IMG/VR virus record: IMGVR_UViG_2531839664_000034
Source of the DNA: a virus
Lineage: Duplodnaviria; Heunggongvirae; Uroviricota; Caudoviricetes
Length of the DNA stretch: 51,554 nt
Strand: one strand, 5' to 3'
A model generated the notes under the pieces. That model was not told the origin of the DNA. It saw only the letters and a program-made list of their open reading frames with translations, and did no database searches. Each line of letters begins with the position of its first letter. Within the stretch, counting starts at the first letter, position 1. Below, in pieces: positions 1 through 44,448 of this stretch. The translations under genes and the position numbers were made by a program.

Positions 1-31
1 ATGAAATCATTAACTGCAGTGCGTAAAAAAA

Positions 32-60
32 GTAAGCGTAAACTGACCGCCGTATGTAGC
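32..60. repeat. Extra IS66-family terminal-repeat-like sequence (GTAAGCGTAAACTGACC...), not paired with any element end in the window
   Basis: Starts with the GTAAGCG motif shared by the other IS66-type ends in this window (101, 352, and the reverse complements at 3060 and 5259). Confidence 0.3.
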
Positions 61-171
61 CATCAGACGAGAATTGGTAACTTAGACGCCCATCTGATAT
101 GTAAGCGTACAGCCTGAACCGTCTGGTCAGAATCTGACGAATTAGACAAAGTGGTGTCCACCAAATAAGTA

Positions 172-351
172 GTGGGAACCAAAGTGTCAGATATGCAGAA
201 AAATGTGACTCCCGGCAGGCGAAAAGGCTGCCCTAATTATCCTCCCGAATTTAAACAGCAGCTCGTTGCTGCCTCCTGTGAACCCGGGATATCCATCTCA
301 AAACTTGCTCTTGAAAATGGCATTAACGCCAATCTGTTGTTCAAATGGCGA
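172..351 (+). pseudogene. IS66 TnpA (orfA) of element B, N-terminal fragment, interrupted at 351/352
   Basis: ORF 172..420 is TnpA-like (PEFKQQLVAAS...GINANLLFKWR) up to position 351; the frame is continued exactly after the inserted element at 3061. Confidence 0.7.
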
Positions 352-433
352 GTAAGCGCCCCATCTGCGACGTCTTGTGAAAATTGTCCTGTCTGGCAAC
401 AATCGCGCCCATCTATATAGATGGACACGAACG

Positions 434-1108
434 ATGAATTCCCAGACAAAAAAAGATATTCCCTGCTTCCGTTCTTATTTGCCTGATGCTCTGCGTTTAA
501 GATTTGAAGATAAACTGACCATCCGGGCCATCGCTCAGCGTCTAGGTCTCAGTCATTCCACAATACATACGCTTTTTCAGCGATTTATTGCATCCGGTAT
601 CGCATGGCCATTGCCCGATTCAGTTTCATTAGCTCAGCTTGATGCCATCCTTTATGCCAACAGAAAGAAGGAATTAACAGAGCCTCAAATCAGCGAAGGC
701 ACATGGCGAAAAGAACGGCGAGCCAGCTACAGCCGTGAATTTAAGGTCCGTCTGGCTAAGCAGGCATTACAGCCCGGTGCTGTTGTTGCCCGGATCGCCA
801 GAGAGCACGGTATCAATGATAACCTGCTGTTTAAATGGAAAAGCCAGTACGAGGACGGCTTACTGAGCGATGATGACATACAGGAATGCATGCCTGTCCC
901 GGTGGCTCTGACTGATACGCCAGAGCCGACCAGACCAGTTACAAATCCCTTCTGGCGTAACAAGCCTGATGAGTGCCCTGAGAGTGATCCCGGAAACGTC
1001 CCACGGTGCGAGCTGCATCTTAAATCAGGTGTGGTAAAACTGTTTGACCCTCTCACTCCGGAAATGTTACGGGCGCTAATCCGCGAAATGAAAGGAGGTA
1101 CCCGATGA
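434..1108 (+). CDS. IS66-family accessory protein TnpA (orfA), long form with N-terminal HTH-like region
   Basis: Contains YSREFKVRLAKQALQPGAVVARIAREHGINDNLLFKWKSQY typical of IS66 orfA; ORF track starts at 377 but that ATG lies only 25 bp inside the IR, so 434 (MNSQTKK) preferred; start uncertain. Confidence 0.6.
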   Translation: MNSQTKKDIPCFRSYLPDALRLRFEDKLTIRAIAQRLGLSHSTIHTLFQRFIASGIAWPLPDSVSLAQLDAILYANRKKELTEPQISEGTWRKERRASYSREFKVRLAKQALQPGAVVARIAREHGINDNLLFKWKSQYEDGLLSDDDIQECMPVPVALTDTPEPTRPVTNPFWRNKPDECPESDPGNVPRCELHLKSGVVKLFDPLTPEMLRALIREMKGGTR

Positions 1109-1452
1109 TAACGCTGCCAACCGGTACCAGAATCTGGATCATCGCTGGCATCACAGATATGCGTTGTGGCTTCAACGGCCTGGCTTCGAAGGTGCAGAAC
1201 ACGCTGAAAGATGACCCGTTCTCCGGGCATATCTTCGTCTTCCGGGGCCGCAGTGGCAAAATGGTGAAAATACTGTGGGCCGATCGTGACGGGTTATGCC
1301 TGTTCGCCAAACGCCTGGAACGGGGCCGCTTCGTCTGGCCGGTAACCCGGGAAGGGAAAGTGCACCTGACGCCAGCTCAGTTATCCATGCTACTGGAGGG
1401 GATCGCGTGGCAACATCCCAAACGGACAGAACGGCCTGGCATCCGGATATAA
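1105..1452 (+). CDS. tnpB: IS66-family TnpB (orfB)
   Basis: 115 aa, MITLPTGTRIWIIAGITDMRCGFNGLA...; overlaps orfA stop (ATGA); canonical IS66 orfB size and sequence. Confidence 0.85.
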   Translation: MITLPTGTRIWIIAGITDMRCGFNGLASKVQNTLKDDPFSGHIFVFRGRSGKMVKILWADRDGLCLFAKRLERGRFVWPVTREGKVHLTPAQLSMLLEGIAWQHPKRTERPGIRI

Positions 1453-1471
1453 CCCGTGATAAAACAGGGGA

Positions 1472-3028
1472 ATGAACAACACACTCCCCGACGACATCGA
1501 GCAACTGAAGGCCCTGCTGATCGCACAGCAGGCTGTTATCGTCCGTCTGTCTGGTGAAATAACCGGCTATGCCCGCGAGATCAGCTCACTCAGAGCGCTG
1601 GTCGCTAAACTGCAGAGAATGTTGTTCGGTCGCAGCAGCGAGAAAAGCCGCGAGAAGACAGAAAAGAAGATCGCACGGGCAGAAACGCGTATAACCGAGC
1701 TCCAGAACAGGCTTGGTGAGGCGCAGTTGCAACTCACCTCAATGGCCGGAGAGACAGCGCCGAAAACATCAGACTCTCCCGTCCGCAAAGCACTTCCGGC
1801 AACACTTCCCCGTGACAGGCAGGTTATCTCCCCGGCAGAAACCGAATGCCCCGTCTGCAGCGGCAAACTGAAACCGCTGGGAGAAAGCATCTCTGAACAA
1901 CTGGATATCATCAACACCGCGTTCAGGGTAATCGAAACGGTTCGCCCAAAACTGGCCTGCAGCCGGTGCGACTGTATAGTTCAGGCTCCGCAGCCACCAA
2001 AACCCATCGAGCGCAGTTACGCCAGTCCGGCTCTGCTGGCCCGCATAATCATGGCTAAGTTCGCCGAGCATCTGCCGCTGTACCGTCAGTCGGAAATCTA
2101 TGCCCGCCAGGGCGTGGAGCTGCACCGCAATACGATGGGGCGCTGGGTTGACATCATGGGAGAGCAGCTTCGCCCGCTGTATGATGAACTGAAGCACTAT
2201 GTGCTGATGGCGGGTAAAGTGCATGCCGATGACACGCCGGTAAATGTACTGGAGCCGGGTCAGGGTAAAACCCGTACCGGACGGCTGTGGGTCTATGTTC
2301 GTGACGATCGCAACGCCGGTTCGACCATGCCGGCAGCGGTGTGGTTCTCATACTCTCCCGACCGCAAAGGCATCCACCCACAGCAACATCTGGCGGACTA
2401 CAGAGGTATCCTGCAGGCCGATGCATATGCGGGTTACAATGCTCTTTACGAAAGCGGTCAGGTAACCGAAGCGGCTTGTATGGCACATGCCCGACGCAAG
2501 ATCCACGATGTACATGTCCGCCATCCAACGACAGTAACGGGAGAAGCGCTCCGTCGTATCGGGGAACTGTACGCTATCGAGGCTGAGATCCGCGGCAGTC
2601 CGGCAGAAGAGCGACTGGCGGTCAGAAAAGCCAGAACGGTACCGCTAATGCAGTCGTTGTATGAGTGGCTCCAGGGGCAGATGAGCACGCTGTCGCGCCA
2701 CTCGGATACAGCGAAAGCGTTCACCTATCTGCTGAAGCAATGGGACGCTCTGAACGAATACTGCCGCAATGGCTGGGTGGAGATCGACAATAACCTGTGT
2801 GAAAACGCCCTCCGGGTAGTTGCACTGGGGCGGCGTAACTACATGTTCTTCGGCTCTGATGGTGGAGGCGAGAGTGCGGCAGTGATGTACAGCCTGATCG
2901 GTAGCTGCAAACTTAACGGAATCGAGCCGGAAACGTGGCTACGCCACGTGATCAGTGTAATCAACACCTGGCCTGCCAACCGCGTGAAAGAGTTGTTGCC
3001 CTGGAATGTCACTCAATCTGTAAACTAA
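1472..3028 (+). CDS. tnpC: IS66-family transposase TnpC
   Basis: 518 aa with N-terminal coiled coil/leucine zipper, CxxC...CxxC zinc-finger (CPVCSGKL...CSRCDC) and DDE-region motifs ([14 protein letters not shown]) typical of IS66 TnpC. Confidence 0.85.
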
Positions 3029-3060
3029 TTTTTACCCCACGTCCTTCACGGTGCGCTTAC

Positions 3061-3290
3061 AATGGCGACAACAATGGCGCGAGGGAAAGCTGCTATTACC
3101 TTCTTCAGAGAGCCCCCAGCTACTTCCTGTGACTCTCGATGCAGCTGCCGAACAGCCAGAATCGCTCGCAGAGGACCCGGAAACCCTCAGTATCAGCTGT
3201 GAGGTAACGTTCCGGCACGGGACGCTCCGCTTCAATGGCAATGTCAGCGAAAAGCTCCTGACTCTGCTGATACAGGAACTGAAGCGATGA
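3061..3290 (+). pseudogene. IS66 TnpA (orfA) of element B, C-terminal fragment
   Basis: Reading 349-351 (cga) directly into 3069 onward gives ...LFKWR-QQWREGKLLLPSSE...LLIQELKR in one frame, matching ORF 3051..3290. Confidence 0.7.
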
Positions 3291-3634
3291 TCCCGTTACC
3301 TTCCGGGACCAAAATTTGGCTGGTTGCCGGTATCACCGATATGAGAAATGGCTTCAACGGCCTGGCTGCGAAAGTACAGACGGCGCTGAAAGACGATCCC
3401 ATGTCCGGCCATGTTTTCATTTTCCGGGGCCGCAGCGGCAGTCAGGTTAAACTGCTGTGGTCCACCGGTGACGGACTGTGCCTCCTGACCAAACGGCTGG
3501 AGCGTGGGCGCTTCGCCTGGCCGTCAGCCCGTGATGGCAAAGTATTCCTTACACAGGCGCAGCTGGCGATGCTGCTGGAAGGTATCGACTGGCGACAGCC
3601 TAAGCGGCTGCTGACCTCCCTGACCATGCTGTAA
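3287..3634 (+). CDS. tnpB: IS66-family TnpB (orfB), element B
   Basis: 115 aa [27 protein letters not shown]..., paralogous to 1105..1452. Confidence 0.85.
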
Positions 3635-3683
3635 ATCTCTTTATCCTGGTTGTCACAGAATAAGCCCGGTAAAATACGGGCTT

Positions 3684-5222
3684 ATGAACGACATCTCTTC
3701 TGACGACATCTTCCTGCTGAAACAGCGCCTGGCCGAACAGGAAGCGCTGATCCACGCCCTGCAGGAAAAGCTGAACAACCGGGAGCGCGAAATAGACCAT
3801 CTGCAGGCGCAGCTGGATAAACTCCGCCGGATGAACTTCGGCAGTCGTTCCGAAAAAGTCTCCCGCCGTATCGCACAAATGGAAGCCGATCTGAACCGGC
3901 TTCAGAAAGAGAGCGATACGCTGACTGGTAGGGTGTATGACCCGGCAGTACAGCGTCCGTTGCGTCAGACCCGCCCCCGTAAGCCGTTCCCTGAATCACT
4001 ACCCCGTGACGAAAAGCGACTGTTGCCTGCGGCGCCGTGCTGCCCGAACTGCGGCGGTTCACTGAGCTATCTGGGCGAGGATACCGCCGAACAGCTGGAG
4101 TTGATGCGTAGCGCCTTCCGGGTTATCCGGACGGTACGGGAAAAACATGCCTGTACTCAGTGCGATGCCATCGTGCAGGCACCTGCACCTTCGCGGCCCA
4201 TCGAGCGGGGTATCGCCGGACCGGGGCTGCTGGCCCGCGTGCTGACCTCGAAGTATGCAGAGCACACCCCGCTGTATCGCCAGTCAGAAATATACGGCCG
4301 GCAAGGTGTGGAGCTGAGCCGTTCACTGCTGTCGGGCTGGGTGGATGCATGCTGCCGGCTGCTGTCTCCGCTGGAAGAGGCGCTTCATGGCTATGTCATG
4401 ACTGACGGCAAACTCCATGCCGATGATACCCCGGTCCAGGTACTGCTGCCGGGTAATAAGAAGACGAAGACCGGGCGGTTGTGGGCGTATGTTCGTGATG
4501 ACCGCAATGCCGGGTCAGCGTTGGCACCTGCAGTGAGGTTCGCTTACAGCCCGGACAGAAAAGGCATCCATCCGCAGACTCATCTTGCCTGCTTCAGCGG
4601 TGTGCTGCAAGCGGATGCGTACGCCGGGTTCAACGAGCTGTATCGCAATGGTGGGATAACGGAAGCTGCCTGCTGGGCTCATGCCCGCCGAAAGATCCAC
4701 GATGTGCACGTCCGCATCCCGTCAGCACTGACGGAAGAAGCCCTGGAGCAGATCGGTCAGTTGTACGCCATAGAGGCGGATATAAGGGGAATGCCGGCAG
4801 AGCAGCGGCTTGCTGAACGTCAGCGAAAAACGAAACCGCTGTTGAAATCCCTGGAAAGCTGGTTGCGTGAAAAGATGAAGACCCTGTCGCGACACTCAGA
4901 GTTGGCGAAGGCGTTCGCGTACGCACTTAACCAGTGGCCGGCACTGACGTACTATGCGAACGATGGCTGGGTGGAAATCGACAACAACATCGCTGAAAAT
5001 GCCCTGCGGGCGGTCAGTCTGGGTCGTAAAAACTTCCTGTTCTTCGGCTCTGACCATGGTGGTGAGCGGGGAGCGCTAGTGTACAGCCTGATCGGGACGT
5101 GCAAACTGAATGACGTGGATCCAGAAAGCTACCTTCGCCATGTGCCTGGCGTCATAGCAGACTGGCCGGTCAACCGGGTCAGCGAACTGCTTCCGTGGCG
5201 CATAGCACTGCCAGCTGAATAA
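3684..5222 (+). CDS. tnpC: IS66-family transposase TnpC, element B
   Basis: 512 aa; same architecture as 1472..3028 (CCPNCGG...CTQCD zinc finger, [14 protein letters not shown]). Confidence 0.85.
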
Positions 5223-5261
5223 CACATCCCCGTCAATACGGTTCTTGCTGCACGCTTACCA

Positions 5262-5477
5262 ACAAACCGGCCCACACCAGAAGCGATTATGGCAAACTAC
5301 CAACTGAATGAACAATTACTGGAGGGATGCAGGCCCTGGATTGTTATTTTTGATGACGTTCTTACTGCCGGTAGCCATTTTAAAGCGATGAAAAGCCTGA
5401 TACTACAACATATTCCTGAAGCCTGTATACTGGGACTCTTTGTTGCCCGAACAACCCGGGGAGCTCAAATTATTTAA
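5262..5477 (+). pseudogene. C-terminal fragment of a phosphoribosyltransferase (PRTase)-fold protein, 5-prime end removed by IS66 element B
   Basis: Open frame runs from the IS66 boundary (5259) without a plausible N-terminus; PRTase signature hydrophobic-DD-V-x-T-x-G (WIVIFDDVLTAGSHF) near the C-terminus. Confidence 0.4.
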
Positions 5478-5494
5478 AAAGGGTAAAGTACTCC

Positions 5495-7879
5495 TTAAAA
5501 TGAAAGCCCTTCACCATCAGCCACAATCCTGTACCCCATCGCCTTATAACCCCGCTGGCGTTTATCCCACATTCTGAGCAGCACTGGATACGCGGTATCC
5601 ACAAAATCAATGATCCTGACATCGCTTTTACCGGTATGCTCTCTGTGTAGACGTCCCGCATACTGCTGTAATGTCCCTTTCCATGACACAGGCATGGCAA
5701 GAATCAGCGTATCCAGCGGAGGGTGGTCAAATCCCTCACCAATAAGTCTGCCTGTTGACAACAAAATACGGGGAGAATCAGGAGGAAGAGCATTCAGCCC
5801 GGATATCAGCATCGCACGCTTTTTTTTCGATAGTCGTCCATGGAGAATAAAGGGGGACAATTTCAGTGAATTCATCACTGATGCTATCTCATCCAGATGA
5901 TCTGTACGTTCAGTCAGTACCAGAACTTTTCGCCCCTGCCCGAAAGCTTTCATGGCTTCTTCAGCTATCGCCACCGTTCTGTCATGATCCAGAGCAATTT
6001 CTCTGAAAATATCCTGGATTCTCGCATCCGATGGTAAATGACCAGATGTAAAACGGGAACGGGTCAGTACCTCCAGATTATGTGGGCTTTCCTTCGGGCG
6101 GACCGCTGTATGGCGAATGGCACCACAGTACATAAAAATAATGGGATGCAGACCATCCCGTCGGATTGGTGTTGCCGTCAGGCCAAGCAGATATCTGGCA
6201 TTCGTTTCCTTCAGAATCGCAGAAAATGAAACCGCGCCAATATGATGGCACTCATCCACAATGATTTGCCCATAATTCCTGACCAGAGGTTCAACTTCTC
6301 CGTGTCTGGATATGGACTGCACCACCGCAATATCAATATTGCCACAGGGTTTATGTTTACCTCCCCCGATAATACCAATATTGTCACCAACCTGCAGAAA
6401 CACCGCGAGACGCTCCTGCCACTGCTTCAGCAATTCAGTCCGGTGTACCAGTATCAGTGTATTCACTTTCCGTCTGGCAATCACTGCCGCTGCGGTAACT
6501 GTCTTACCAAAAGCCGTTGGCGCACAAAGCACACCAGTGTCATAACGGAGTAATCCCGAAACGGCCTCTTCCTGCTCCGCTCTGAGGTTTCCCATAAAAA
6601 CGGCATTACATTCCGTCCCGGCAAATCGTTTATCGATTAATTCTGCAGCAATATTGTTGTCCCTAAGGAAAGATAATACGCTGTCCAGACATCCCTGGGG
6701 CAACGCAATGTGTTGCGGGTAATTCTCCGCACAACCTATAACACGGGGCTTATTCCAGACTGACATACGCATTGCCTGAGCCTTATAAAACTCAGGGTTC
6801 GGAAATGCTGCCAGCCGAATAAGTCGGTTAATCAGCACCTGAGGTAATTGCGCTTTTTCGAAATAGATCTGGTTTGCCAGCGTGATTTTCAGCGGTTCTG
6901 CAATAGAAATATTCAGTCTGTTTCCTGATGATTTTTTCCCTTCCCATGGCGTACCCAGGTCTTCTTCGTTGATAAAGTTCACATCCAGAGGATGGATACT
7001 TCCTGTAGCCCGTAATATCGTCGGTTCAATATTCTGCACATTCATCGGGATCACCGATGCAAGAAAAGCCCATTGATCAGAATAAGGCTGGAAATTCATA
7101 TCAACAAAAACACTTCCCCCCGATTCACGCGGTCTTTTTTGCAGAGGTAATGCTATGAGATTACCAAATCCCCCTTTTGGCATCGTATCCTGATTAGGAA
7201 ATAATCGGTCATAAGAACCCAATCGCAGCTGTCGAGTTCGATTACACGTATAACTAATAATAGCAGTCCCCAGACGGCGAGCTTCGCGGGCCGAAACTCG
7301 TGAAGCAAAAAATATCCAGACATGCGCTCCCTGACGTGAACGGGATATTTCCAGCGCAGCGGGTACACCCAGCTCATCACAGGATCGCATGAATGCGGAT
7401 GCATCCTTCTGCCATTCAGCTTCATCAAAATCAACTGCCAGAAAATAACAGGAATCATCTTCCAGCAACGGATACATCCCGACAGTATGGGTACCTGCCA
7501 GATGGTAGTAGATGACGAGATCAGATACAGGAATCAACTGACGGTGAGCGCAGTCCCCACATTTTATCCGGGGCTTACCGCATATTCTCGCCTGCCATTC
7601 GTTAGCGCAGGCAGGAGAGTACCCTGATTTGCCGCTGGTTTTACTTTCCCATCTAAGTGCCCATACATCATCACGCCCGCGAAACAACCGACGAAATAAT
7701 GCAACCTTCTCATTGGTGGATAATACAGAAACGCGCTGCACAGAGATCGGCGGTTTACGTCGCCATTCAATCCCATGAGCTTCAAGTAATGAGACCAGAC
7801 GGGCATTTTCTGCCCTCAATGCAGCTAATTCATCGCTGTCAGATTTATGAACCATATTCGTTACCTGTATCCGATCCAC
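5495..7879 (-). CDS. Primase-like (AEP/PrimPol-like) N-terminal domain fused to SF2 DEAD/DEAH-type helicase
   Basis: Helicase motifs APTAFGKT (I), IIVDECHH (II), GLTATP (III), QQYAGRLHR (VI); N-terminal Cys cluster (CGKPRIKCGDCAH) and AEP-like motifs LAVDFDEAEW and GAHVWIFF. Track start 7879 is GTG; ATG at 7855 (MVHKSDSD) has a better Shine-Dalgarno. Confidence 0.6.
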   Translation of the reverse strand: MDRIQVTNMVHKSDSDELAALRAENARLVSLLEAHGIEWRRKPPISVQRVSVLSTNEKVALFRRLFRGRDDVWALRWESKTSGKSGYSPACANEWQARICGKPRIKCGDCAHRQLIPVSDLVIYYHLAGTHTVGMYPLLEDDSCYFLAVDFDEAEWQKDASAFMRSCDELGVPAALEISRSRQGAHVWIFFASRVSAREARRLGTAIISYTCNRTRQLRLGSYDRLFPNQDTMPKGGFGNLIALPLQKRPRESGGSVFVDMNFQPYSDQWAFLASVIPMNVQNIEPTILRATGSIHPLDVNFINEEDLGTPWEGKKSSGNRLNISIAEPLKITLANQIYFEKAQLPQVLINRLIRLAAFPNPEFYKAQAMRMSVWNKPRVIGCAENYPQHIALPQGCLDSVLSFLRDNNIAAELIDKRFAGTECNAVFMGNLRAEQEEAVSGLLRYDTGVLCAPTAFGKTVTAAAVIARRKVNTLILVHRTELLKQWQERLAVFLQVGDNIGIIGGGKHKPCGNIDIAVVQSISRHGEVEPLVRNYGQIIVDECHHIGAVSFSAILKETNARYLLGLTATPIRRDGLHPIIFMYCGAIRHTAVRPKESPHNLEVLTRSRFTSGHLPSDARIQDIFREIALDHDRTVAIAEEAMKAFGQGRKVLVLTERTDHLDEIASVMNSLKLSPFILHGRLSKKKRAMLISGLNALPPDSPRILLSTGRLIGEGFDHPPLDTLILAMPVSWKGTLQQYAGRLHREHTGKSDVRIIDFVDTAYPVLLRMWDKRQRGYKAMGYRIVADGEGLSF

Positions 7880-8009
7880 TGAGGCACCACGGCAGAAATT
7901 CGGGTCCCCTACACTGATGACAAAGCGCCCCGCCCTCTTCTGCCTATTAACTCAAGCACCTCCCAACAACTTACAGAAACTTAATTCTAATACCTAATAC
8001 AACTGTAAT

Positions 8010-8573
8010 TCAGTTATGTCGTGGTCGGCCCCGGTTGCTTTTTTCGGGAAGCCTGCTACGGCCCAGAATAATACCGTGTTCTTTCTGATCCTGTTTAGCC
8101 AGATAGCTAAGGGCGTAACGTAAGTTGTCTACCGCGGACTTATCACTATAGTGCATCACGTGATCGATACGCACCGGGTATTTGTCTTTAGCCCTGCACA
8201 GGTGAAAATAACCCTCCCCTTCCGTGATCCGCCTCCAGATATCTCCTAGTTGCCTGGATATCTGATAAGATTTCTTGTGACGTTGCCCATCCAGGTAGCC
8301 GACAAAATGAATATGAAGCCCTTTGTCTGGTGTATATTCCATTACCCAGTAATATCCCGCCAGCATCGTCTGGGTTTCGCTAAGTAAACGGTATATTTCC
8401 ATACACATACTGTGCCTACAGGAATGACCAAAACTGGGCGAGTCTTTCCTGTAGGCAAAATCAATTCTGAAAGGTAACAGTTTAGAAAAACGTTGAAACA
8501 TACCGTCCATGTGTTCATTCACGTCTTTCAGAATCATGAAATCCATTTTGTAATTGGGATTGGCATTATACAT
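8010..8573 (-). CDS. YagK/YfjJ-family (inovirus Gp2-like) protein typical of P4/CP4-57-like islands
   Basis: 187 aa; resembles the remembered YfjJ family (e.g. YPVRIDHVMHYSD region) and sits in the yfjI-yfjJ order of CP4-57-like elements. Confidence 0.5.
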   Translation of the reverse strand: MYNANPNYKMDFMILKDVNEHMDGMFQRFSKLLPFRIDFAYRKDSPSFGHSCRHSMCMEIYRLLSETQTMLAGYYWVMEYTPDKGLHIHFVGYLDGQRHKKSYQISRQLGDIWRRITEGEGYFHLCRAKDKYPVRIDHVMHYSDKSAVDNLRYALSYLAKQDQKEHGIILGRSRLPEKSNRGRPRHN

Positions 8574-9585
8574 TTTATAGTCCTTACTTTATAAAACTCA
8601 CAGGAAGAGAGAATTACGTAAATACTGAGAGTAGAGAAACGCCGTACCACGGCATTAATAAACGAAGTAAACCAGCAGCACAGACAACCTGATAAAACTG
8701 TTTTGTATTACCGCATTACTGTAATGAGGTAATACTTCAGAATACAGTGAGACTCTCTTAAACTGAGAACCAGTACGAATTACAATGGAAAAACACACCT
8801 CATAGAATTGAGTTTCAGGAAGCACCACTAAATTCTTTACAGGAAGTAATCTGACATTCACAAAAGTCAGCTATAGAATAGCCACAGACAACATCGCTAT
8901 TAATATTGTCGTACCATTAAGTGAAAACAGCGACTCTGCAGAGAGCAGCCTACAGATATTTAATCAGTAGCATAAAAGAATAATGACATACAGACCATAC
9001 GCTACACACCATAAAAAGATTGTTTCATACAAAAAAGATAATATTTACCCATGCTTATAAACTGTAACGGAGCTATAACGTACGAACTAAAGACAATATA
9101 CTCTAATAGTGTGCTGGTACGTAACCAGTGTTAAATGCAAACCAGACATACATTCAGCGGATTAACTTTCTCAATATTACGCTATGAGTGTAGTAACATA
9201 ATTTACACATAACTAAACTCCATACACCACCACACTGTAGTATATGGGGATAGACGCATTACGCACATACAGAATACTCAGCATAAAGAGGAGTGACATT
9301 ACGATAAAAAGAGACAACATAACAGATAACATAACTTCCACTAATAATACTAATTAACCTTAATTATTTATTGAATACGAAAACAATGAAGTGCCCTCCT
9401 TATCTAAGGCCAAAGCCAGCAATATCCTGTACAACACTCTATCCAATAGTAAATAGTAGTTACACCAGTTATATTTACTGACTGACCTGTACCAGAGTTC
9501 TGTAATACAACACTGACATGGTCATGGCATTAATCTCCTCCGCAAGTAACGGAGGAGACTATATGTTACTCAACGATTAAGTCGT

Positions 9586-32406: not shown

Positions 32407-32733
32407 ATGACTAAAAATACTCGTTTTTCCCCCGAAGTCCGTCAGCGGGCGATTCGTATGGTTCTGGAAAGTCAGGATGAATATGACTCACAGTGGGCGG
32501 CAATTTGTTCCATTGCCCCAAAGATTGGCTGTACGCCGGAGACTCTGCGTGTCTGGGTTCGCCAGCATGAGCGGGATACCGGGGGCGGTGATGGTGGGCT
32601 CACCAGCGCTGAACGTCAGCGTCTGAAAGAGCTGGAACGTGAAAATCGTGAACTGCGCCGCAGTAACGATATCCTTCGCCAGGCTTCCGCTTATTTTGCG
32701 AAGGCGGAGTTCGACCGCCTCTGGAAAAAATGA
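32407..32733 (+). CDS. IS629-like OrfA
   Basis: 108 aa [22 protein letters not shown]... with leucine-zipper C-terminus. Confidence 0.85.
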
Positions 32734-33620
32734 TGCCACTGCTGGATAAGCTGCGTGAGCAGTACGGGGTCGGACCGGTATGCAGCGAACTGCATATTGC
32801 CCCGTCAACGTATTACCATTGTCAGCAACAGCGACATCATCCGGATAAACGCAGTGCCCGTGCGCAGCACGATGACTGGCTGAAGAGAGAGATACAGCGC
32901 GTATACGATGAAAATCACCAGGTATACGGTGTGCGTAAAGTCTGGCGTCAGTTGTTACGGGAAGGTATCAGAGTGGCCAGATGCACTGTGGCACGTCTCA
33001 TGGCAGTTATGGGACTTACCGGTGTTCTCCGGGGTAAAAAGGTCCGCACTACCGTCAGCCGGAAAGCCGTTGCCGCAGGCGACCGCGTAAACCGTCAGTT
33101 CGTGGCAGAACGTCCAGACCAGTTGTGGGTGGCTGATTTTACCTGGGTAAGCACATGGCAGGGCTTCGTTTATGTGGCGTTCATCATTGATGTGTTCGCC
33201 GGATACATCGTGGGATGGCGGGTCTCATCATCCATGGAAACGGCATTCGTGCTGGATGCACTGGAGCAGGCGTTGTGGGCCCGTCGGCCGTCCGGCACAA
33301 TCCACCACAGTGATAAAGGTTCTCAGTATGTATCGCTGGCCTACACGCAGCGGCTTAAGGAAGCCGGCTTACTGGCATCAACAGGGAGTACTGGTGACTC
33401 GTATGACAACGCGATGGCGGAGAGCATCAATGGCCTTTACAAAGCGGAGGTAATACACCGTAAGCGCTGGAAAAACCGTGCAGAAGTGGAACTGGCCACA
33501 CTAACGTGGGTGGACTGGTATAACAATCGACGATTGCTGGGAAGGCTGGGCCATACTCCTCCGGCAGAAGCAGAAAAAGCTTATTATGCTTCCATCGGAA
33601 ACAATGATCTGGCAGCCTGA
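32730..33620 (+). CDS. IS629-like OrfB transposase (DDE)
   Basis: 296 aa; DDE region (LWVADFTWV...HHSDKGSQY...[15 protein letters not shown]). Confidence 0.85.
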
Positions 33621-34466: not shown

Positions 34467-35357
34467 TCAGGCTGCCAGATCATTGTTTCCGATGGAAGCA
34501 TAATAAGCTTTTTCTGCTTCTGCCGGAGGAGTATGGCCCAGCCTTCCCAGCAATCGTCGATTGTTATACCAGTCCACCCACGTTAGTGTGGCCAGTTCCA
34601 CTTCTGCACGGTTTTTCCAGCGCTTACGGTGTATTACCTCCGCTTTGTAAAGGCCATTGATGCTCTCCGCCATCGCGTTGTCATACGAGTCACCAGTACT
34701 CCCTGTTGATGCCAGTAAGCCGGCTTCCTTAAGCCGCTGCGTGTAGGCCAGCGATACATACTGAGAACCTTTATCACTGTGGTGGATTGTGCCGGACGGC
34801 CGACGGGCCCACAACGCCTGCTCCAGTGCATCCAGCACGAATGCCGTTTCCATGGATGATGAGACCCGCCATCCCACGATGTATCCGGCGAACACATCAA
34901 TGATGAACGCCACATAAACGAAGCCCTGCCATGTGCTTACCCAGGTAAAATCAGCCACCCACAACTGGTCTGGACGTTCTGCCACGAACTGACGGTTTAC
35001 GCGGTCGCCTGCGGCAACGGCTTTCCGGCTGACGGTAGTGCGGACCTTTTTACCCCGGAGAACACCGGTAAGTCCCATAACTGCCATGAGACGTGCCACA
35101 GTGCATCTGGCCACTCTGATACCTTCCCGTAACAACTGACGCCAGACTTTACGCACACCGTATACCTGGTGATTTTCATCGTATACGCGCTGTATCTCTC
35201 TCTTCAGCCAGTCATCGTGCTGCGCACGGGCACTGCGTTTATCCGGATGATGTCGCTGTTGCTGACAATGGTAATACGTTGACGGGGCAATATGCAGTTC
35301 GCTGCATACCGGTCCGACCCCGTACTGCTCACGCAGCTTATCCAGCAGTGGCATCAT
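34467..35357 (-). CDS. IS629-like OrfB transposase
   Basis: Identical 296-aa translation to 32730..33620. Confidence 0.85.
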
Positions 35358-35680
35358 TTTTTCCAGAGGCGGTCGAACTCCGCCTTCGCAAAATAAGCGG
35401 AAGCCTGGCGAAGGATATCGTTACTGCGGCGCAGTTCACGATTTTCACGTTCCAGCTCTTTCAGACGCTGACGTTCAGCGCTGGTGAGCCCACCATCACC
35501 GCCCCCGGTATCCCGCTCATGCTGGCGAACCCAGACACGCAGAGTCTCCGGCGTACAGCCAATCTTTGGGGCAATGGAACAAATTGCCGCCCACTGTGAG
35601 TCATATTCATCCTGACTTTCCAGAACCATACGAATCGCCCGCTGACGGACTTCGGGGGAAAAACGAGTATTTTTAGTCAT
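35354..35680 (-). CDS. IS629-like OrfA
   Basis: Identical 108-aa translation to 32407..32733. Confidence 0.85.
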
Positions 35681-40018: not shown

Positions 40019-40248
40019 AGCCTGAGGCATCGCTAAAATACTTCCGCCATCAGTGCATCGCGGAAATCAATATAACGAAACAACGTAACGGTTCTCTGGG
40101 AACGATTTACCGGCGTTTTTATAACGGACATTTTCTGCCCGTAGACCAGGAAAGCGCACAGGTTCTTTCCACCCCAATGCGGCCATCCCAGCCGCGCAGA
40201 TACAGCAACAAACGAACTGACAGCAGTAAGATGGAGCGCTTCTTTTGA
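40015..40248 (+). CDS. Small hypothetical phage protein
   Basis: 77-aa ORF with overlapping start/stop (translational coupling) in an operon-like run. Confidence 0.3.
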   Translation: MKPEASLKYFRHQCIAEINITKQRNGSLGTIYRRFYNGHFLPVDQESAQVLSTPMRPSQPRRYSNKRTDSSKMERFF

Positions 40249-40502
40249 ACAACCAGACAATGACTTTTACCCCTGAACAATTGCGTAAACAGGCACAGGA
40301 AATGTTGCGACAGGCGGAACAACTGGAAAAAACAGGTGTAACAAAAGATGCCATTCGTCGGGATATGGTGCCGGCGCTCAGGGAACTGATGCAGGCGAAG
40401 CACCGCGCACAAAAAGCAGTGGATGAGATGGTGGATTGTGTGGCAGAACTGGAAACCAAAGTTGGTAAGTTTGAAAAACTGGTGCAGGAGGTACTGCGCT
40501 GA
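40245..40502 (+). CDS. Small coiled-coil phage protein
   Basis: 85-aa ORF, overlapping stops/starts on both sides. Confidence 0.35.
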   Translation: MNNQTMTFTPEQLRKQAQEMLRQAEQLEKTGVTKDAIRRDMVPALRELMQAKHRAQKAVDEMVDCVAELETKVGKFEKLVQEVLR

Positions 40503-40852
40503 TGCGTGATATGTACGAAGTTTTAGATCGTTGGGGGGCTTGGGCTGCAGCAGAAAATAGTGGTGTCGACTGGCAGTCGATAGCGGCAGGCTTCAAGGGG
40601 CTTCTATCACACGGTAAAAAGTCACGTCTCCAGTGCGATGATGATGAAGGAATTATGATTGATGGATGTGTGGCCCGGTTGCGGAAATATAAACCAGAAG
40701 AATATGAGCTGATCATTGCTCACTTTGTTATCGGGATTTCTCTCCGTACAATTGCAAAAAAGCGGAAGTGTTCAGATGGCACAATCAGAAAAGAACTACA
40801 AACAGCATTGGGGTTCGTTGATGGGATGCTATTTATACTTTCAGATAACTGA
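40502..40852 (+). CDS. Late-gene antiterminator Q (QuuD/YbcQ-like short form)
   Basis: 116 aa with ...LDRWGAWAA...IAAGFKGL...QCDDD...CSDGTIRKELQ..GMLF pattern recalled from the about 127-aa Q family of DLP12-like prophages. Confidence 0.6.
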   Translation: MRDMYEVLDRWGAWAAAENSGVDWQSIAAGFKGLLSHGKKSRLQCDDDEGIMIDGCVARLRKYKPEEYELIIAHFVIGISLRTIAKKRKCSDGTIRKELQTALGFVDGMLFILSDN

Positions 40853-40939
40853 ATTTTAATACTGTTAATTTAGTTATTTAGAATTGATGTGATTTAGGGT
40901 AAAATGCATTTAATTTCCTGGTTTTGTATGAGGTTCAGC

Positions 40940-41794
40940 ATGACTACATTTTTTACCCCATTACGTTATCCCGGTGGAAAAGGGAGGATGGGGCCTTGGT
41001 TATCAGAACTGCTGAGGTATAACGGAATTAGTGGTGGGTATTATGTGGAGCCATATGCTGGCGGCGCAGGAGCTGCATTGTATTTGCTAATGCATGGATA
41101 TGTAGATCATGTCATTATTAATGATTTGGATCCTGTTGTTTACTCATTTTGGTGGTCAGTGTTAAATGAGAATGATAAATTTATTTCATTGATAAATGAA
41201 ACAGAAGTAACAATGGATAATTGGTATAAGCAAAAAGATGTAATAAACAATTATACTAAATATGATATTTTATCTATTGGTTTTGCTACGTTTTTTCTCA
41301 ATCGAACCAATCGTTCTGGAATCTTATCAGGTGGGGTTATAGGAGGAAAAGAACAGAGTGGTAAATATAAGATTGATGCTAGGTATAATAAGAAGAAACT
41401 ATGTGAAAGAGTAAAAAAAATAGGTGGAATGAAAAAATTTATTGATCTTTATAATTTGGATGCCTGTGAGTTGATTGGTAGTATAAAAAATACACTACCA
41501 AAAAAATCTCTAATTTATCTTGATCCTCCATATTATGAAAAAGGTAGCCAGCTTTATAGAAATCATTATAAACCTCATGATCATAAATTAATTTCTGAAA
41601 AGGTTAAGGATATTTCCACTCCGATAATTGTTACATATGATAATTGTGAAGAAATCAGGAAGTTATATAAAGACGAAAAAATTGTGGAGTTTTCTTTACA
41701 TTACTCAACTCATTTGACAAGGCCAAGAGTTACAGAACTTATGGTATATAAAAATTTAAATATTCATAGCATTCCCTCTATGAAGAAGAAATGA
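40940..41794 (+). CDS. DNA N6-adenine methyltransferase, Dam-like (D12 class)
   Basis: N-terminal PLRYPGGKG (AdoMet-binding) and catalytic YLDPPY motifs; GAGG Shine-Dalgarno before ATG 40940 (track ORF starts 40904); strongly AT-rich. Confidence 0.7.
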   Translation: MTTFFTPLRYPGGKGRMGPWLSELLRYNGISGGYYVEPYAGGAGAALYLLMHGYVDHVIINDLDPVVYSFWWSVLNENDKFISLINETEVTMDNWYKQKDVINNYTKYDILSIGFATFFLNRTNRSGILSGGVIGGKEQSGKYKIDARYNKKKLCERVKKIGGMKKFIDLYNLDACELIGSIKNTLPKKSLIYLDPPYYEKGSQLYRNHYKPHDHKLISEKVKDISTPIIVTYDNCEEIRKLYKDEKIVEFSLHYSTHLTRPRVTELMVYKNLNIHSIPSMKKK

Positions 41795-41840
41795 AAACTG
41801 TACGCTGGACTAATTTATTAGTCCAGCGTGGTATATCATT

Positions 41841-43244
41841 TTAATCTTTCCAACAAGCCCGAACAAAACAACCTATATTGTCCCAAAAAACATTAATTGA
41901 GATATAATCTGGGTGATGTGTCTCTCTGTGAATTAATTTTTGTAAAGTTTCAATGTGCACAGTTCCTTGCTCGCCGCGAGTATAAGCTGATATTATATGG
42001 TGTTCTGAGTCAGTGATTAGATTATTTTTCAACATATGATCTGCGCTATTAGCAATATTTTTAGCTAAGGCTTTTTTATCTTGCAACTTGTTAATTGTTC
42101 TATATTCTTTATCACTTAACTCCAGCAGTGCCCGAAGAAGAAATGCAGTTGCAAGAGTTGTTTTTTTTACATCTAATTGCCTAAGTTCTGAGATTATAGT
42201 TCTTATTTTAGTCTCATCTTCAGGAATCGTAATTCCAGGCTTTCCTCTACCAAAAATTTTATTTCGCTCTGCTGGTATTTTTTTAGGTGTAACTCCTCTA
42301 CCTGCGTGTTTTTTTAGTAGTACAGGTGCGTCACTCTTACTATCTGATTGCGCATTATTGTTATCCACCTCAGATGGAGAGGAATATTTATTTGTTTCTT
42401 CTTTTTTATTATTTTCTTGTTCTGTGTCATCACTATTGTAAGCAAAATCATCTATTATTCCTGCATACTTTCTTACCGAGCAAAGATATTTCTTTGCATC
42501 GCTAGGATTAAAGACGGTGTTAACATCAACTATTTTTGAAGAAAAGTCGCTATTAATTTTTGAGGCCATTTTTATTATTTTTTCTTTTGAGAGTATTGGC
42601 TTCAATTTATCATTTTCCACTTCAAATCCTAACAATAGAAGATTATCTCTAGTAAAGAATCTGGCTACACTAGTGATTGGGAAATCATCATCTACATCAA
42701 TACCTTCTTGTTCAGCCCAACACATATATTGACCAGCTCTTTTATAATCAGTTGGATGTCCATTATTTAATAGATAAATTGTTCGCATATATGCAAACCA
42801 GTCATATTGACCAGCACCATTACGTGCTCCAGAATGCCTTGCTATTATCTCTTTAAATACTGCTTCAAAATTGTCACTTGATAAACAGTCAACAGTAGTA
42901 GGTATGTTGTCATGATATTTTTCTTTTATTTTTTTTATTTTCGGAATTAAATGTGGCTCCGGGCAACTATCTGGGTTATTTAATAGTTTTAAAGCTGTTA
43001 TTCGTCTATTACCATCTTTAACTACCCATTTACCTTCTGAGTGAGGCATAACCAATATGGGCATGGTTGTAAGTCCGTTTTCTGCAATATCTTCCATCAA
43101 TACAAGCATCTGGTTTTCTTGACGCAATATCCTCGAAATGCAGTTGTTTTGATCTCTACCTGCGCGGATTCTGGCATTTTCAGTATCGAGGAGGATATTT
43201 TGAATTGGAATGTCTATTTGCTGAGTGAAATCTTTACGAGCCAT
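41841..43244 (-). CDS. ParB/sulfiredoxin-fold (ParB-like nuclease domain) protein with acidic low-complexity linker
   Basis: N-terminal pattern IQNILLDTENARIR ... LMEDIAENGLTTMPILV ... WVVKDGNRRITALKLL (GxRR box); convergent with the methyltransferase, 46 bp between stops. Confidence 0.5.
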   Translation of the reverse strand: MARKDFTQQIDIPIQNILLDTENARIRAGRDQNNCISRILRQENQMLVLMEDIAENGLTTMPILVMPHSEGKWVVKDGNRRITALKLLNNPDSCPEPHLIPKIKKIKEKYHDNIPTTVDCLSSDNFEAVFKEIIARHSGARNGAGQYDWFAYMRTIYLLNNGHPTDYKRAGQYMCWAEQEGIDVDDDFPITSVARFFTRDNLLLLGFEVENDKLKPILSKEKIIKMASKINSDFSSKIVDVNTVFNPSDAKKYLCSVRKYAGIIDDFAYNSDDTEQENNKKEETNKYSSPSEVDNNNAQSDSKSDAPVLLKKHAGRGVTPKKIPAERNKIFGRGKPGITIPEDETKIRTIISELRQLDVKKTTLATAFLLRALLELSDKEYRTINKLQDKKALAKNIANSADHMLKNNLITDSEHHIISAYTRGEQGTVHIETLQKLIHRETHHPDYISINVFWDNIGCFVRACWKD

Positions 43245-43485
43245 ATAATATATCCTTGTTTTAAAATCAACCCATCGATTAATTTTACAAAATCATTAAC
43301 GCGTACGCAAAAACTATTGTATTGTGTTAAGGATAGTCGCTTCGCCACACAGCTTAAACCTGCCGCCGAGCGGGTTTTTTTGTGCCTGAAAAGTGGCGCA
43401 GTACGTTAAACGCGCTGGTGGTTGCGAATACCGGTCTTTCAGCTTGCTGGCTTTTTCGACAAGAGTTATTGGTGTGTCACGTTAA

Positions 43486-43878
43486 CCGGAAAAAGGAAAG
43501 TTTGAGAAACGCGATCTGGCACAGGCGGTTATTAATGCTGCCTACCTGGTGGCCTGTGCAGATGGTGAATGTGAGGCTTCCTAGAAAGCGAAGATCGAAC
43601 AGGTACTGCGTAATCAGCCTGCGCTGTCCGCGTTTACGTCAGAAATTAATGCGATTAGCGCAACCATTATCGGTCAGCTGGATACGAACTTTAAAATTGG
43701 TCGTCGTGCGGCGTTACGTGAGATCGAGGATGTGAAACACGATACGCGTGAAGCGGAAGATGTGCTGGATGTGGCGGTGGCCATTGCGGAGGCAGACGGC
43801 GAAATTGAGCCGGAAGAGCGCAAGGTGCTGGAAGAGATTGCCGGTGTTCTGGGTCTTCGTCTGGAGAATCACCTGTGA
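43486..43878 (+). pseudogene. TerB-like (tellurite-resistance TerB fold) gene remnant with in-frame TAG at 43582-43584 and no start codon
   Basis: Frame reads ...AVINAAYLVACADGECEAS*KAKIEQ...VAVAIAEADGEIEPEERKVLEEIAGVLGL, TerB-like ADGE...EE repeats; the ORF-track frames here (43382..43735, 43748..44035) are not the coding frame. Confidence 0.4.
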
Positions 43879-44006: not shown

Positions 44007-44207
44007 CCGGTGATAAAAAGAAACAGCCTGCATAATGCTTGATTTTTTTATTTGCTGTTTATTAAAAATACTACTGCATGGTGAATCCCCCTGTGCGGAG
44101 GGGCAATCAGCAACCAGGTATATGTGATAATCGCGGATTCAGGTGCTGATACTGAATTCACCGGGAGGCACCCGGCACCATGCAAGAAAAAGAATGTGCA
44201 TGCAAAA

Positions 44208-44235
44208 ATGCCCCTCTCCGGAGGGGCATTTTTTA
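44208..44235 (+). terminator. Strong rho-independent terminator (possible tR-prime-like late terminator)
   Basis: ATGCCCCTC-TCCG-GAGGGGCAT perfect hairpin followed by TTTTTT, about 210 bp upstream of the esterase gene. Confidence 0.65.
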
Positions 44236-44448
44236 TGGGTAAAAAATGCCCGAATGGGTTCGGGCAATAGCATGAGATACTGATATTGTTGTGTTGTTAT
44301 CGTGTGGATTTTAACCAGGGTTTATCAGGCTGCGCAACTGCGTGGCCTTCTTCATTTCTTGGGCTGTAGTCCCCGTGTGTCATTCAGGCTTCCGGACTAC
44401 AGCCCACTCCATATCTGATTTAATACACTATCCCGGCCGGGAGGAATA

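Follow-up and report, generated by a model that had tools for sequence, protein, structure and literature searches.

PD-lambda-5 is a two-gene anti-phage system recovered by functional selection from Escherichia coli ECOR7 and listed as 'ParB/HEPN, methyltransferase' (Vassallo et al. 2022; PMC9519451). HHpred comparisons of the prototype gave ParBc (96.4%) over residues 6-89 of protein A and a D12 methyltransferase (99.9%) for protein B. The prototype provided the broadest protection in the panel, strongest against T-even phages, whose resistance to most restriction-modification systems is intrinsic, and its cloning required an mrr-deleted derivative of MG1655 (PMC9519451). A search of the literature found no mechanistic study of the system; later papers merely repeat the original description or count the system in surveys. 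Here, we analyse a stretch of 51,554 nucleotides (IMG/VR record IMGVR_UViG_2531839664_000034, hereafter the window, meaning the whole stretch) that carries a lambda-like, decaying or defective prophage of E. coli O121:H19. Two intact convergent open reading frames (ORFs) lie in this prophage between the antiterminator gene Q and the late-promoter region. We conclude that this pair is very probably a divergent member of the PD-lambda-5 family with a role in defence, because both proteins match the PADLOC models of this system over their full length (B with an E-value of 1.4e-114, A with 4e-74).

The initial annotation of this DNA had described a possibly novel prophage moron, a defence module akin to restriction-modification but for its unconventional partner. 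The description was apt, except for the novelty: the system is already known as PD-lambda-5 (PMC9519451) and is present in PADLOC. The cassette is real and probably helpful to the host, and it adds a divergent allele to a known and validated family whose mechanism is unsolved. What is new here is the invariance of the NxR and DGNRR motifs of the ParB domain, the linkage of the two genes in 32 of 33 loci, the recurrent order of Q, methyltransferase and partner, and the position of the cassette upstream of the late-promoter block.

Kinship with PD-lambda-5

Gene B encodes a D12-class methyltransferase, as first annotated. Its PADLOC match (model PDLC04018, PD-Lambda-5_B, 380 bits) covers residues 13-289 of a 296-aa ORF, and it also matches the D12 family of Pfam (PF02086, 8.7e-18) and the DNA methyltransferases of phrog_56 (5.8e-50). 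Among solved structures, its sole match at E<=0.001 is 7m6b, an adenine-specific DNA methyltransferase (2.6e-12). The motifs LRYPGGKG and LDPPYY can be read directly in the protein, in which the catalytic and S-adenosylmethionine-binding motifs are present; KDGNRRITAL can be read in the same way in protein A, and all three motifs quoted at first (YPGGKG, DPPY and DGNRRITAL) were found in the ORFs. The full ORF spans 40904..41794 (+), and an upstream alternative ATG at 40904 would give a protein of 296 aa. The start is most likely the ATG at 40940, because RefSeq has the same start (WP_001370700.1), GAGG occurs 6 nt before it, and the alignments of homologues begin at residue 4.

The methyltransferase had also been called 'Dam-like'. 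This does not hold in the sense of a Dam orthologue, since the protein scores 52.3 bits on the TIGR00571 'dam' model, against a cut-off of 114.85. The idea of an orphan Dam was discarded, both for this score and because the loci bearing the partner keep the methyltransferase next to it, in the proportion given below. No methylome of O121:H19 was found in the literature.

Protein A matches the PADLOC model PDLC03998 (PD-Lambda-5_A, 248 bits) from residue 9 to 466, against positions 4-465 of the 466 in the model, and it matches 25 further PD-Lambda-5_A models as well as phrog_9592, a family of unknown function (1.7e-38). As a stand-in for the ECOR7 prototype, we used the pair found at a P2 hotspot in E. 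coli MSI001, chosen by its size and best PADLOC model: it is 2460 bp long, against 2461 bp for the prototype, and its protein A (501 aa) scores 557.6 bits on the same best model. The two A proteins can be aligned end to end (24% identity, E 3e-20), and the two methyltransferases are 46% identical. The nearest relatives of the protein A of the window are in metagenomic prophages and prophages of metagenome-assembled genomes (MAGs), at 76-81% identity, followed by those of Yersinia, Serratia, Klebsiella and Xenorhabdus (65-70%). The family of protein A is large and diverse: a profile search against 1.84 billion representatives yielded 2476 cluster representatives at E<=1e-10, of which 714 pass E<=1e-30.

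Near-identical cassette DNA was not found in sequenced phages when we searched a phage collection, and tblastn against phages returned distant homologues only, with at most 34% identity and mostly restricted to the N-terminal part. Some of these matches are in P2-like phage records (H94-H109, including P2, Wphi, L-413C, HQ103 and the vB_EcoM-12474 series), in which proteins encoded near the genome ends resemble the ParB domain of protein A at their N-termini (~110-150 residues, 27-34% identity). They look like a separate family of ParB-domain cargo in P2 hotspots.

Linkage, partners and architecture

We surveyed the linkage of the two genes using one genome per species and a scan with the family profile. 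This gave 60 loci, 33 of which, bacterial and archaeal, encode a near-full-length protein A. A D12 methyltransferase homologue adjoins A in 32 of these 33 loci, in convergent orientation in 21, co-directional in 10 and upstream in 1. The gap between the genes is usually below 110 bp, and 46 bp separate the stop codons in the window. The initial annotation had allowed for an orphan methyltransferase occurring mostly without its partner; as seen from the partner-bearing loci, the two stay together. Related E. coli methyltransferases that lack the ParB protein pair instead with an AAA ATPase or an ATP-dependent nuclease. In each of the 32 loci, A is less conserved than the methyltransferase (median identity 38% versus 54%). 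A faster-diverging partner beside a conserved methyltransferase is typical of modification/restriction pairs.

The spacing of the pair is not uniform. Several betaproteobacterial loci (L014, L015, L022, L023 and L024) have an extra 0.9-2.4 kb between the A gene and the convergent methyltransferase gene. In L015, this interval contains an ORF of 261 aa (7528-8313) with the N-terminus LYLDESGS..., which is DUF3800-like by eye only.

The methyltransferase belongs to a D12 clade in which pairwise identity is at least 44% across the eight representatives compared, and the four that were scanned match PD-Lambda-5_B at 1e-114 to 1e-124. A methyltransferase ~50% identical to that of the window is encoded in about 110 complete E. 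coli genomes. In the four such loci that we inspected, the partner is an AAA_15/AAA_21 protein of ~570 aa ('ATP-dependent nuclease' or OLD-like ATPase), and there is no ParB protein. These ATPases form two subfamilies, ~25% identical to each other, and the loci that encode them are in P2 hotspots, at the integrase ends of prophages and in an integrative and conjugative element (ICE). An ICE of Klebsiella carries all three genes, the ATPase followed by A (ParB-HEPN) and then by the convergent methyltransferase. PADLOC gave the ATPase partner only weak matches to PtuA, AriA, GajA and HEC-04, and its pairing with the methyltransferase may be an unnamed system. The methyltransferase is therefore seen with ParB-HEPN alone, with an OLD-like AAA ATPase/nuclease alone, with both, or in a pair with a third ORF between the genes, which suggests a modular family centred on the methyltransferase, with interchangeable partners.

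The domains of protein A are hard to recognise by sequence. The Pfam scan of the protein gave no match at E<=0.01, and sub-threshold matches among 39 family members were commonest, and weak, with GmrSD_N (23/39), followed by ParB_N (13/39). A profile search against the sequences of the PDB gave only marginal matches to SbnI and PadC (E 0.012-0.22). Since these searches yielded nothing solid, a comparison of folds was needed. In the AlphaFold model, built on 39 homologues (mean confidence score, pLDDT, 78.6), a disordered linker connects two ordered parts. This is the acidic low-complexity linker noted at first; it cannot be aligned among homologues, because it varies in length and sequence (alignment A1). 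Foldseek matched residues ~1-267 with ParB, Noc, KorB, sulfiredoxin, PadC and SbnI, with probabilities up to 1.0 and weak E-values (best 5e-3). The alignments to structures comprising the ParB N-terminal and helix-turn-helix domains run over ~265-280 columns and span both the N-terminal and the middle domain of A. On this model, the middle domain is a possible DNA-binding module.

Conservation in the family, whose alignment reaches archaea and Patescibacteria, is concentrated in few residues: N23, R25, G78-N79-R80-R81, H137, G139, W149, R371, E375 and H439. N23 and R25 are kept in 21 of 21 alignable members, and G78, N79, R80 and R81 in 22 of 22, with D77 replaced by E in one. Hence both box I (NxR-type) and box II (GxRR, with the P-motif arginines) of ParB-CTPases are conserved in protein A. 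The nucleotide specificity of this fold is unpredictable from sequence or from AlphaFold models (PMC12704722). We discarded a partition system: there is no parA beside the pair in the RefSeq record, the score on the RepB model TIGR03454 is 17.9 bits where the cut-off is 201.5, and a HEPN domain forms the C-terminus.

This last domain was modelled separately and compared by fold. It gave a four-helix HEPN fold (pLDDT 86, predicted template-modelling score 0.84), so that the architecture of protein A, a ParB N-terminus followed by a HEPN-like C-terminal region, agrees with the 'ParB/HEPN' description of PD-lambda-5. The domain is modelled with a HEPN fold, and cannot be called a catalytic HEPN RNase.

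This bears on whether the pair is a plain type II-like restriction-modification system, in which A would be the endonuclease, its ParB/Srx domain cutting unmarked DNA and its HEPN domain serving as a non-catalytic dimerisation or binding module, with no abortive infection. Many type II systems show the same tight convergent pairing of a methyltransferase with a faster-evolving partner, and a HEPN domain that lacks Rx4-6H and best matches the non-catalytic Roquin would suit a structural role. However, neither Pfam, nor the PDB profile search, nor the fold search revealed a recognised endonuclease fold in A (PD-(D/E)xK, HNH, GIY-YIG or PLD), and the prototype acts best against the T-even phages that resist most restriction-modification systems. 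The invariance of R371, E375 and H439 from Proteobacteria to archaea and Patescibacteria also argues for a function beyond scaffolding. We regard plain restriction as unlikely.

The cassette in its prophage

The coordinates of the features are given in Table 1. The two ORFs form a convergent pair between Q, on one side, and the nanS-p-like esterase and lysis genes, on the other, as the initial annotation had it, and the region is indeed very AT-rich. The GC profile falls to 28-37% over ~40800-43300, compared with ~50% in the flanks and 45.6% in the whole window. Each limit of the cassette is good to about +/-30 bp. On the left, the homology to other Q-bearing prophages, at 90% identity, stops at ~40824 (H60, query 156-925, corresponding to 40055-40824 in the window). 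This limit falls inside the final codons of Q, whose last ~9 codons are within AT-rich DNA, and the same C-terminus of Q is present in an enterobacterial MAG prophage (L005). On the right, homology restarts at ~43283, with the block that lies directly 3' of the Q stop codon in the Stx2 (Shiga toxin 2) prophage CB6837.

Table 1. Features of the cassette and of its surroundings in the window, followed by the loci of the methyltransferase clade.
Feature	Position	Strand	Basis or remark
AT-rich cassette with both genes, ~2.46 kb, 32.9% GC	40825..43283	.	Q gene to its left, conserved post-Q (late promoter/terminator) block to its right
PD-lambda-5_B, D12-class N6-adenine DNA methyltransferase, 284 aa	40940..41794	+	PF02086, PADLOC, RefSeq, motifs
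PD-lambda-5_A, ParB/Srx-HEPN protein, 467 aa	41841..43244	-	PADLOC, RefSeq WP_000101315.1, AlphaFold
A residues ~1-150, ParB/Srx-fold (ParB-CTPase-like) domain	42795..43244	-	NxR (N23, R25), DGNRR (77-81) and [RK]HxG..GxG..W (136-149) invariant
A residues ~151-267, helical middle domain with two short beta-hairpins	42444..42794	-	model pLDDT 81-93
A residues 268-318, acidic Ser/Asn-rich low-complexity linker	42291..42443	-	pLDDT <50
A residues ~340-467, HEPN-fold helical domain	41844..42227	-	R371, E375 (helix 2) and H439 (before the last helix) invariant
Hairpin between the convergent stop codons, 13-bp stem	41801..41830	.	RNA fold -22.4 kcal/mol, z = -7.1, 0/200 shuffles as good
Candidate sigma-70 promoter of gene A	43282..43310	-	-35 TTGCGT (43310-43305), 17-nt spacer, -10 TAAAAT (43287-43282)
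Ribosome-binding site of gene A, AAGGA	43258-43254		
Pair of overlapping, weak promoter-like sites within the 87 bp that separate Q and the methyltransferase	40856..40905	+	TTAATA-17-TAGAAT; TTTAGA-17-TAAAAT; consensus scan
Q antiterminator gene, 116 aa	40502..40852	+	PF06530, 1.4e-45
Terminator-like hairpin and T-run of the post-Q block	43356..43377	+	terminator scan; conserved in four prophages, the stem carrying substitutions
TerB-family gene, immediately to the right of the cassette	43516-43878		internal stop
STnc100 small RNA gene	44050-44240	+	146 bits
AgvB, anti-GcvB small RNA	44241-44302	-	96.5 bits
IS3-family frameshift pseudoknot (ALIL)	32688-32804	+	121.5 bits
IS3-family frameshift pseudoknot (ALIL)	35283-35399	-	121.5 bits
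Clade loci	L002 4091-6803; L003 5900-8460; L004 3888-6527; L068 2017-4666; L070 5321-9246		

Of 5426 complete E. coli genomes, nine contain the 2.4-kb region at 100% identity, and both ORFs are intact in each of them. The carriers with a serotype in their record are all O121 or O121:H19 (RM8352, 16-9255, FWSEC0006 and GTVSS-020), and the annotation of the pair in RM8352 reads only 'DNA adenine methylase' and 'ParB/Srx family N-terminal domain-containing protein'. From Q onwards, the prophage genes come in the order Q, cassette, TerB pseudogene, DUF3927, SASA/nanS-p esterase, holin, lysozyme and terminase. The marks of decay include copies of IS600 and IS3 and the truncation of a helicase; the TerB gene beside the cassette is interrupted, and further to the right the portal gene is frameshifted and an HNH gene is partial. 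The two genes of the cassette stay intact despite this decay.

Other elements outside the cassette were also observed. Two IS3-family frameshift pseudoknots mark copies of insertion sequences in the early region of the prophage. Between DUF3927 and the nanS-p-like esterase gene, the genes of the small RNAs STnc100 and AgvB adjoin each other, back to back.

The integrity of both genes in a prophage that gathers insertion sequences and pseudogenes could also be explained by selfish addiction: loss of the cassette would dilute methylation, A would kill the cell, and the cassette would stabilise itself and the decaying prophage, with defence a secondary effect. Post-segregational killing by restriction-modification systems is the model for such behaviour. 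The two genes travel together as one unit among prophages, P2 hotspots and ICEs, and the need for a special cloning host indicates that the methyltransferase is not without cost or consequence for its cell. Yet, the toxicity of A alone is hypothetical, and the presence of the cassette in so few E. coli genomes, all O121 where serotyped, shows no sign of strong selfish spread. Addiction does not exclude defence either. As an account of the cassette in its own right we give it very little credence, and favour a defence cassette of the PD-lambda-5 family.

The position of the cassette required a correction. It had been placed in the slot that carries stx in Stx phages, and it is actually upstream of the conserved post-Q block. 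In CB6837, a small ORF comes after this block, then a PF01555 methyltransferase gene, three tRNA genes and finally stx2A, which puts stx ~2 kb further downstream, beyond the PF01555-type methyltransferase and the tRNA genes. No tRNA genes like those of the Stx-phage slot were found in the window. The hairpin of the post-Q block lies directly 3' of two unrelated Q/antiterminator genes, in CB6837 and in O103 RM8385, and is probably the tR'-type terminator of the late operon. We place pR' in the same block, judging from its position after Q. The order Q, methyltransferase, convergent A and late block with lysis genes is also found in a Serratia marcescens prophage (L073) and in the enterobacterial MAG prophage mentioned above. 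In E. coli ETEC1749 (L065 4019-5116), where Q is related, an ompC porin gene on the reverse strand separates Q from the same conserved block. PD-lambda-5 in O121 and Serratia and ompC in ETEC1749 thus share the junction of Q with the late promoter of lambdoid prophages, which looks like a cargo hotspot in its own right, separate from the stx slot. Homologous cassettes are AT-rich and occur in accessory slots of prophages and in an ICE.

Gene A would use its own promoter, abutting the late-promoter block. The promoter block is kept in the Serratia and enterobacterial MAG prophages, with an identical -35 and a -10 of TATTAT or TATCAT; this conservation is suggestive only and not independent evidence, because the three loci share a phage backbone. 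The consensus scanner missed this candidate promoter, whose -35 matches the consensus at 3/6 positions. The hairpin between the stop codons is a candidate bidirectional terminator, with no clean U-run. As for gene B, it would be transcribed constitutively from weak local promoters and, on induction, by read-through from Q together with the delayed-early genes. Such read-through is possible because the scan reported no terminator-like hairpin in the gap between Q and the methyltransferase.

The same arrangement might instead serve the phage. With its gene 87 bp downstream of Q and in the same orientation, the methyltransferase could methylate progeny DNA on induction, either shielding phage DNA from host restriction or reprogramming host expression as an epigenetic moron, with A as a ParB-type regulator comparable to KorB or DndB. 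An anti-defence role has been suggested for phage proteins in which a ParB fold and a methyltransferase are fused (PMC12704722). Nevertheless, the prototype pair came out of a selection for protection of the cell from external phages and was validated in that role; the pair is also found on an ICE and in many non-phage chromosomal contexts, archaea included. Protein A is modelled with a HEPN fold whose invariant polar residues are typical of effector modules, and it diverges faster than the methyltransferase in every locus, which is expected of an effector in an arms race and not of a housekeeping regulator. An anti-defence or epigenetic role is therefore very improbable relative to anti-phage defence.

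Proposed mechanism, significance and known systems

Our overall reading, a divergent PD-lambda-5 moron in a defective lambdoid prophage together with a proposed mode of action, is in our view likely. The specific scheme in which methylation gates a sensor-effector protein is tentative, its chances being somewhat short of even. The methyltransferase would mark host and prophage DNA at an adenine motif other than that of Dam. Protein A would load on DNA, or scan it, through its ParB-like nucleotide-gated domain and its middle domain, as do ParB, KorB, Noc and the DUF262 domains of GmrSD, BrxU and SspE. An encounter with unmarked incoming DNA, or loss of the mark, would release the effector activity, which could belong to the HEPN domain (an RNase or toxic module), to the ParB domain (a nuclease or NTPase) or to both. 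The outcome would combine restriction-like with abortive-infection-like protection. The need for an mrr-deleted cloning host suggests active adenine methylation outside Dam sites, given what Mrr restricts; Mrr tolerates the GATC methylation of Dam. The strong T-even phenotype of the prototype speaks against simple restriction of unmodified DNA, and favours a component that is independent of the cutting of cytosine-modified DNA.

A bolder formulation of this scheme is more doubtful still. PD-lambda-5 would be a restriction-modification-like system without an endonuclease, in which a ParB-type, nucleotide-gated DNA clamp reads adenine methylation and unmarked DNA triggers a HEPN effector with a non-canonical R...E...H arrangement, and the methyltransferase clade would be a common self-marking hub for interchangeable effectors.

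Several observations weigh against our reading. Protein A is merely 24% identical to the P2-hotspot type, with less than half of its score on the same model (248 versus 558 bits), and anti-phage activity was demonstrated for the ECOR7 allele and is predicted from sequence for this one. One full-length homologue of A (L042) has no methyltransferase within 6 kb. The promoter-like sites are at chance level, 10 being found where 12.9 were expected from shuffles; because the consensus scans do not exceed shuffled sequence, the expression model draws on inspection and limited conservation. In an ST131 prophage (EC958/JJ1886 Phi2), the D12 methyltransferase M.EcoMIV is reported to be transcriptionally silent and to give no detectable motif in single-molecule real-time sequencing (PMC4659465). 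This enzyme could belong to the same clade, perhaps as the JJ1887-type relative in L002, and silence of the methyltransferase in lysogens would abolish the self-marking step, so that the simple model would need revising. The assignment of an effector raises similar difficulties. The top structural match of the HEPN domain is Roquin, a non-catalytic HEPN protein, no Pfam HEPN family was detected in A by sequence, and the canonical Rx4-6H motif of RNases is not present: the sequence near the histidine is LQKLIH(439)RETH, R440 is not conserved (R, K, N, S or A), and the sole invariant arginine, R371, lies 68 residues upstream of H439. The domain may thus be a binding or dimerisation module rather than an RNase. 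The 'nuclease-like' label first given to the ParB domain found no support, nuclease activity of this fold being without a diagnostic motif.

Two generically named genes of the E. coli O121:H19 outbreak lineage can now be named as a PD-lambda-5-type defence system, which may influence which phages, Stx phages included, infect this lineage. For the mechanism of PD-lambda-5, the analysis provides domain boundaries in protein A, a fold-level HEPN assignment that lacks the canonical catalytic motif, and a short list of invariant residues for mutation (N23, R25, R80/R81, H137, R371, E375 and H439). The methyltransferase emerges as a conserved core with swappable partners. It is in this clade, and in the unsolved mechanism, that the interest of the cassette now lies.

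Comparison with known systems places the pair at the meeting point of several of them. Protein A shares with the CTP clamps ParB, Noc and KorB the N-terminal fold, the NxR and GxRR-type motifs and Foldseek similarity across the N-terminal and middle domains. It differs from them by the absence of a parA neighbour and of the ParB C-terminal dimerisation family, matched by Pfam in 0 of 39 family members. The equivalent of ParB box III is replaced in the A family by [RK]HxG..GxG..W, the C-terminus is HEPN, and the setting is one of defence and not of segregation. HEPN toxins and abortive-infection proteins, such as AbiV, the C-terminus of AbiA, RnlA, MNT-HEPN and Csm6, differ from A, which lacks Rx4-6H and has R371, E375 and H439 on different helices, so that RNase activity is not implied.

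Modification-aware defences of the GmrSD, BrxU and SspE group (DUF262 with DUF1524 HNH) resemble A more closely in layout, with an N-terminal nucleotide-binding domain of the ParB/Srx superfamily, a DGxxR-type motif and a C-terminal effector. Their effector is HNH/DUF1524, whereas that of A has a HEPN fold on modelling, and they attack or sense modified DNA without such a dedicated methyltransferase, which is an obligate neighbour here. Fusions of a ParB fold with a methyltransferase in phages (PF02195 with PF01555; PMC12704722) also tie the ParB-CTPase fold to adenine methylation on prophages. They are single polypeptides of N6_N4 type (PF01555) and have a proposed anti-defence role, in contrast with the two convergent genes, the D12 methyltransferase and the HEPN domain of our locus.

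Type II restriction-modification systems share with the cassette a stand-alone methyltransferase, tightly linked and often convergent to a faster-evolving partner, as well as mobility and AT-richness, and self-marking by methylation is the likely logic of both. They differ in the partner, which here combines ParB/Srx with HEPN and has no known endonuclease catalytic fold, and in the efficacy of the prototype against T-even phages. PD-lambda-5 itself, as described from ECOR7 and catalogued in PADLOC and in DefenseFinder ('PD-Lambda-5'), has the same adjacent D12 methyltransferase and ParB-HEPN protein of ~450-500 aa, borne by prophages in AT-rich DNA. The P2-hotspot type, represented by MSI001, has its two genes co-directional at the P2 hotspot, whereas the pair of the window is convergent and sits at the junction between Q and the late promoter of a lambdoid prophage.

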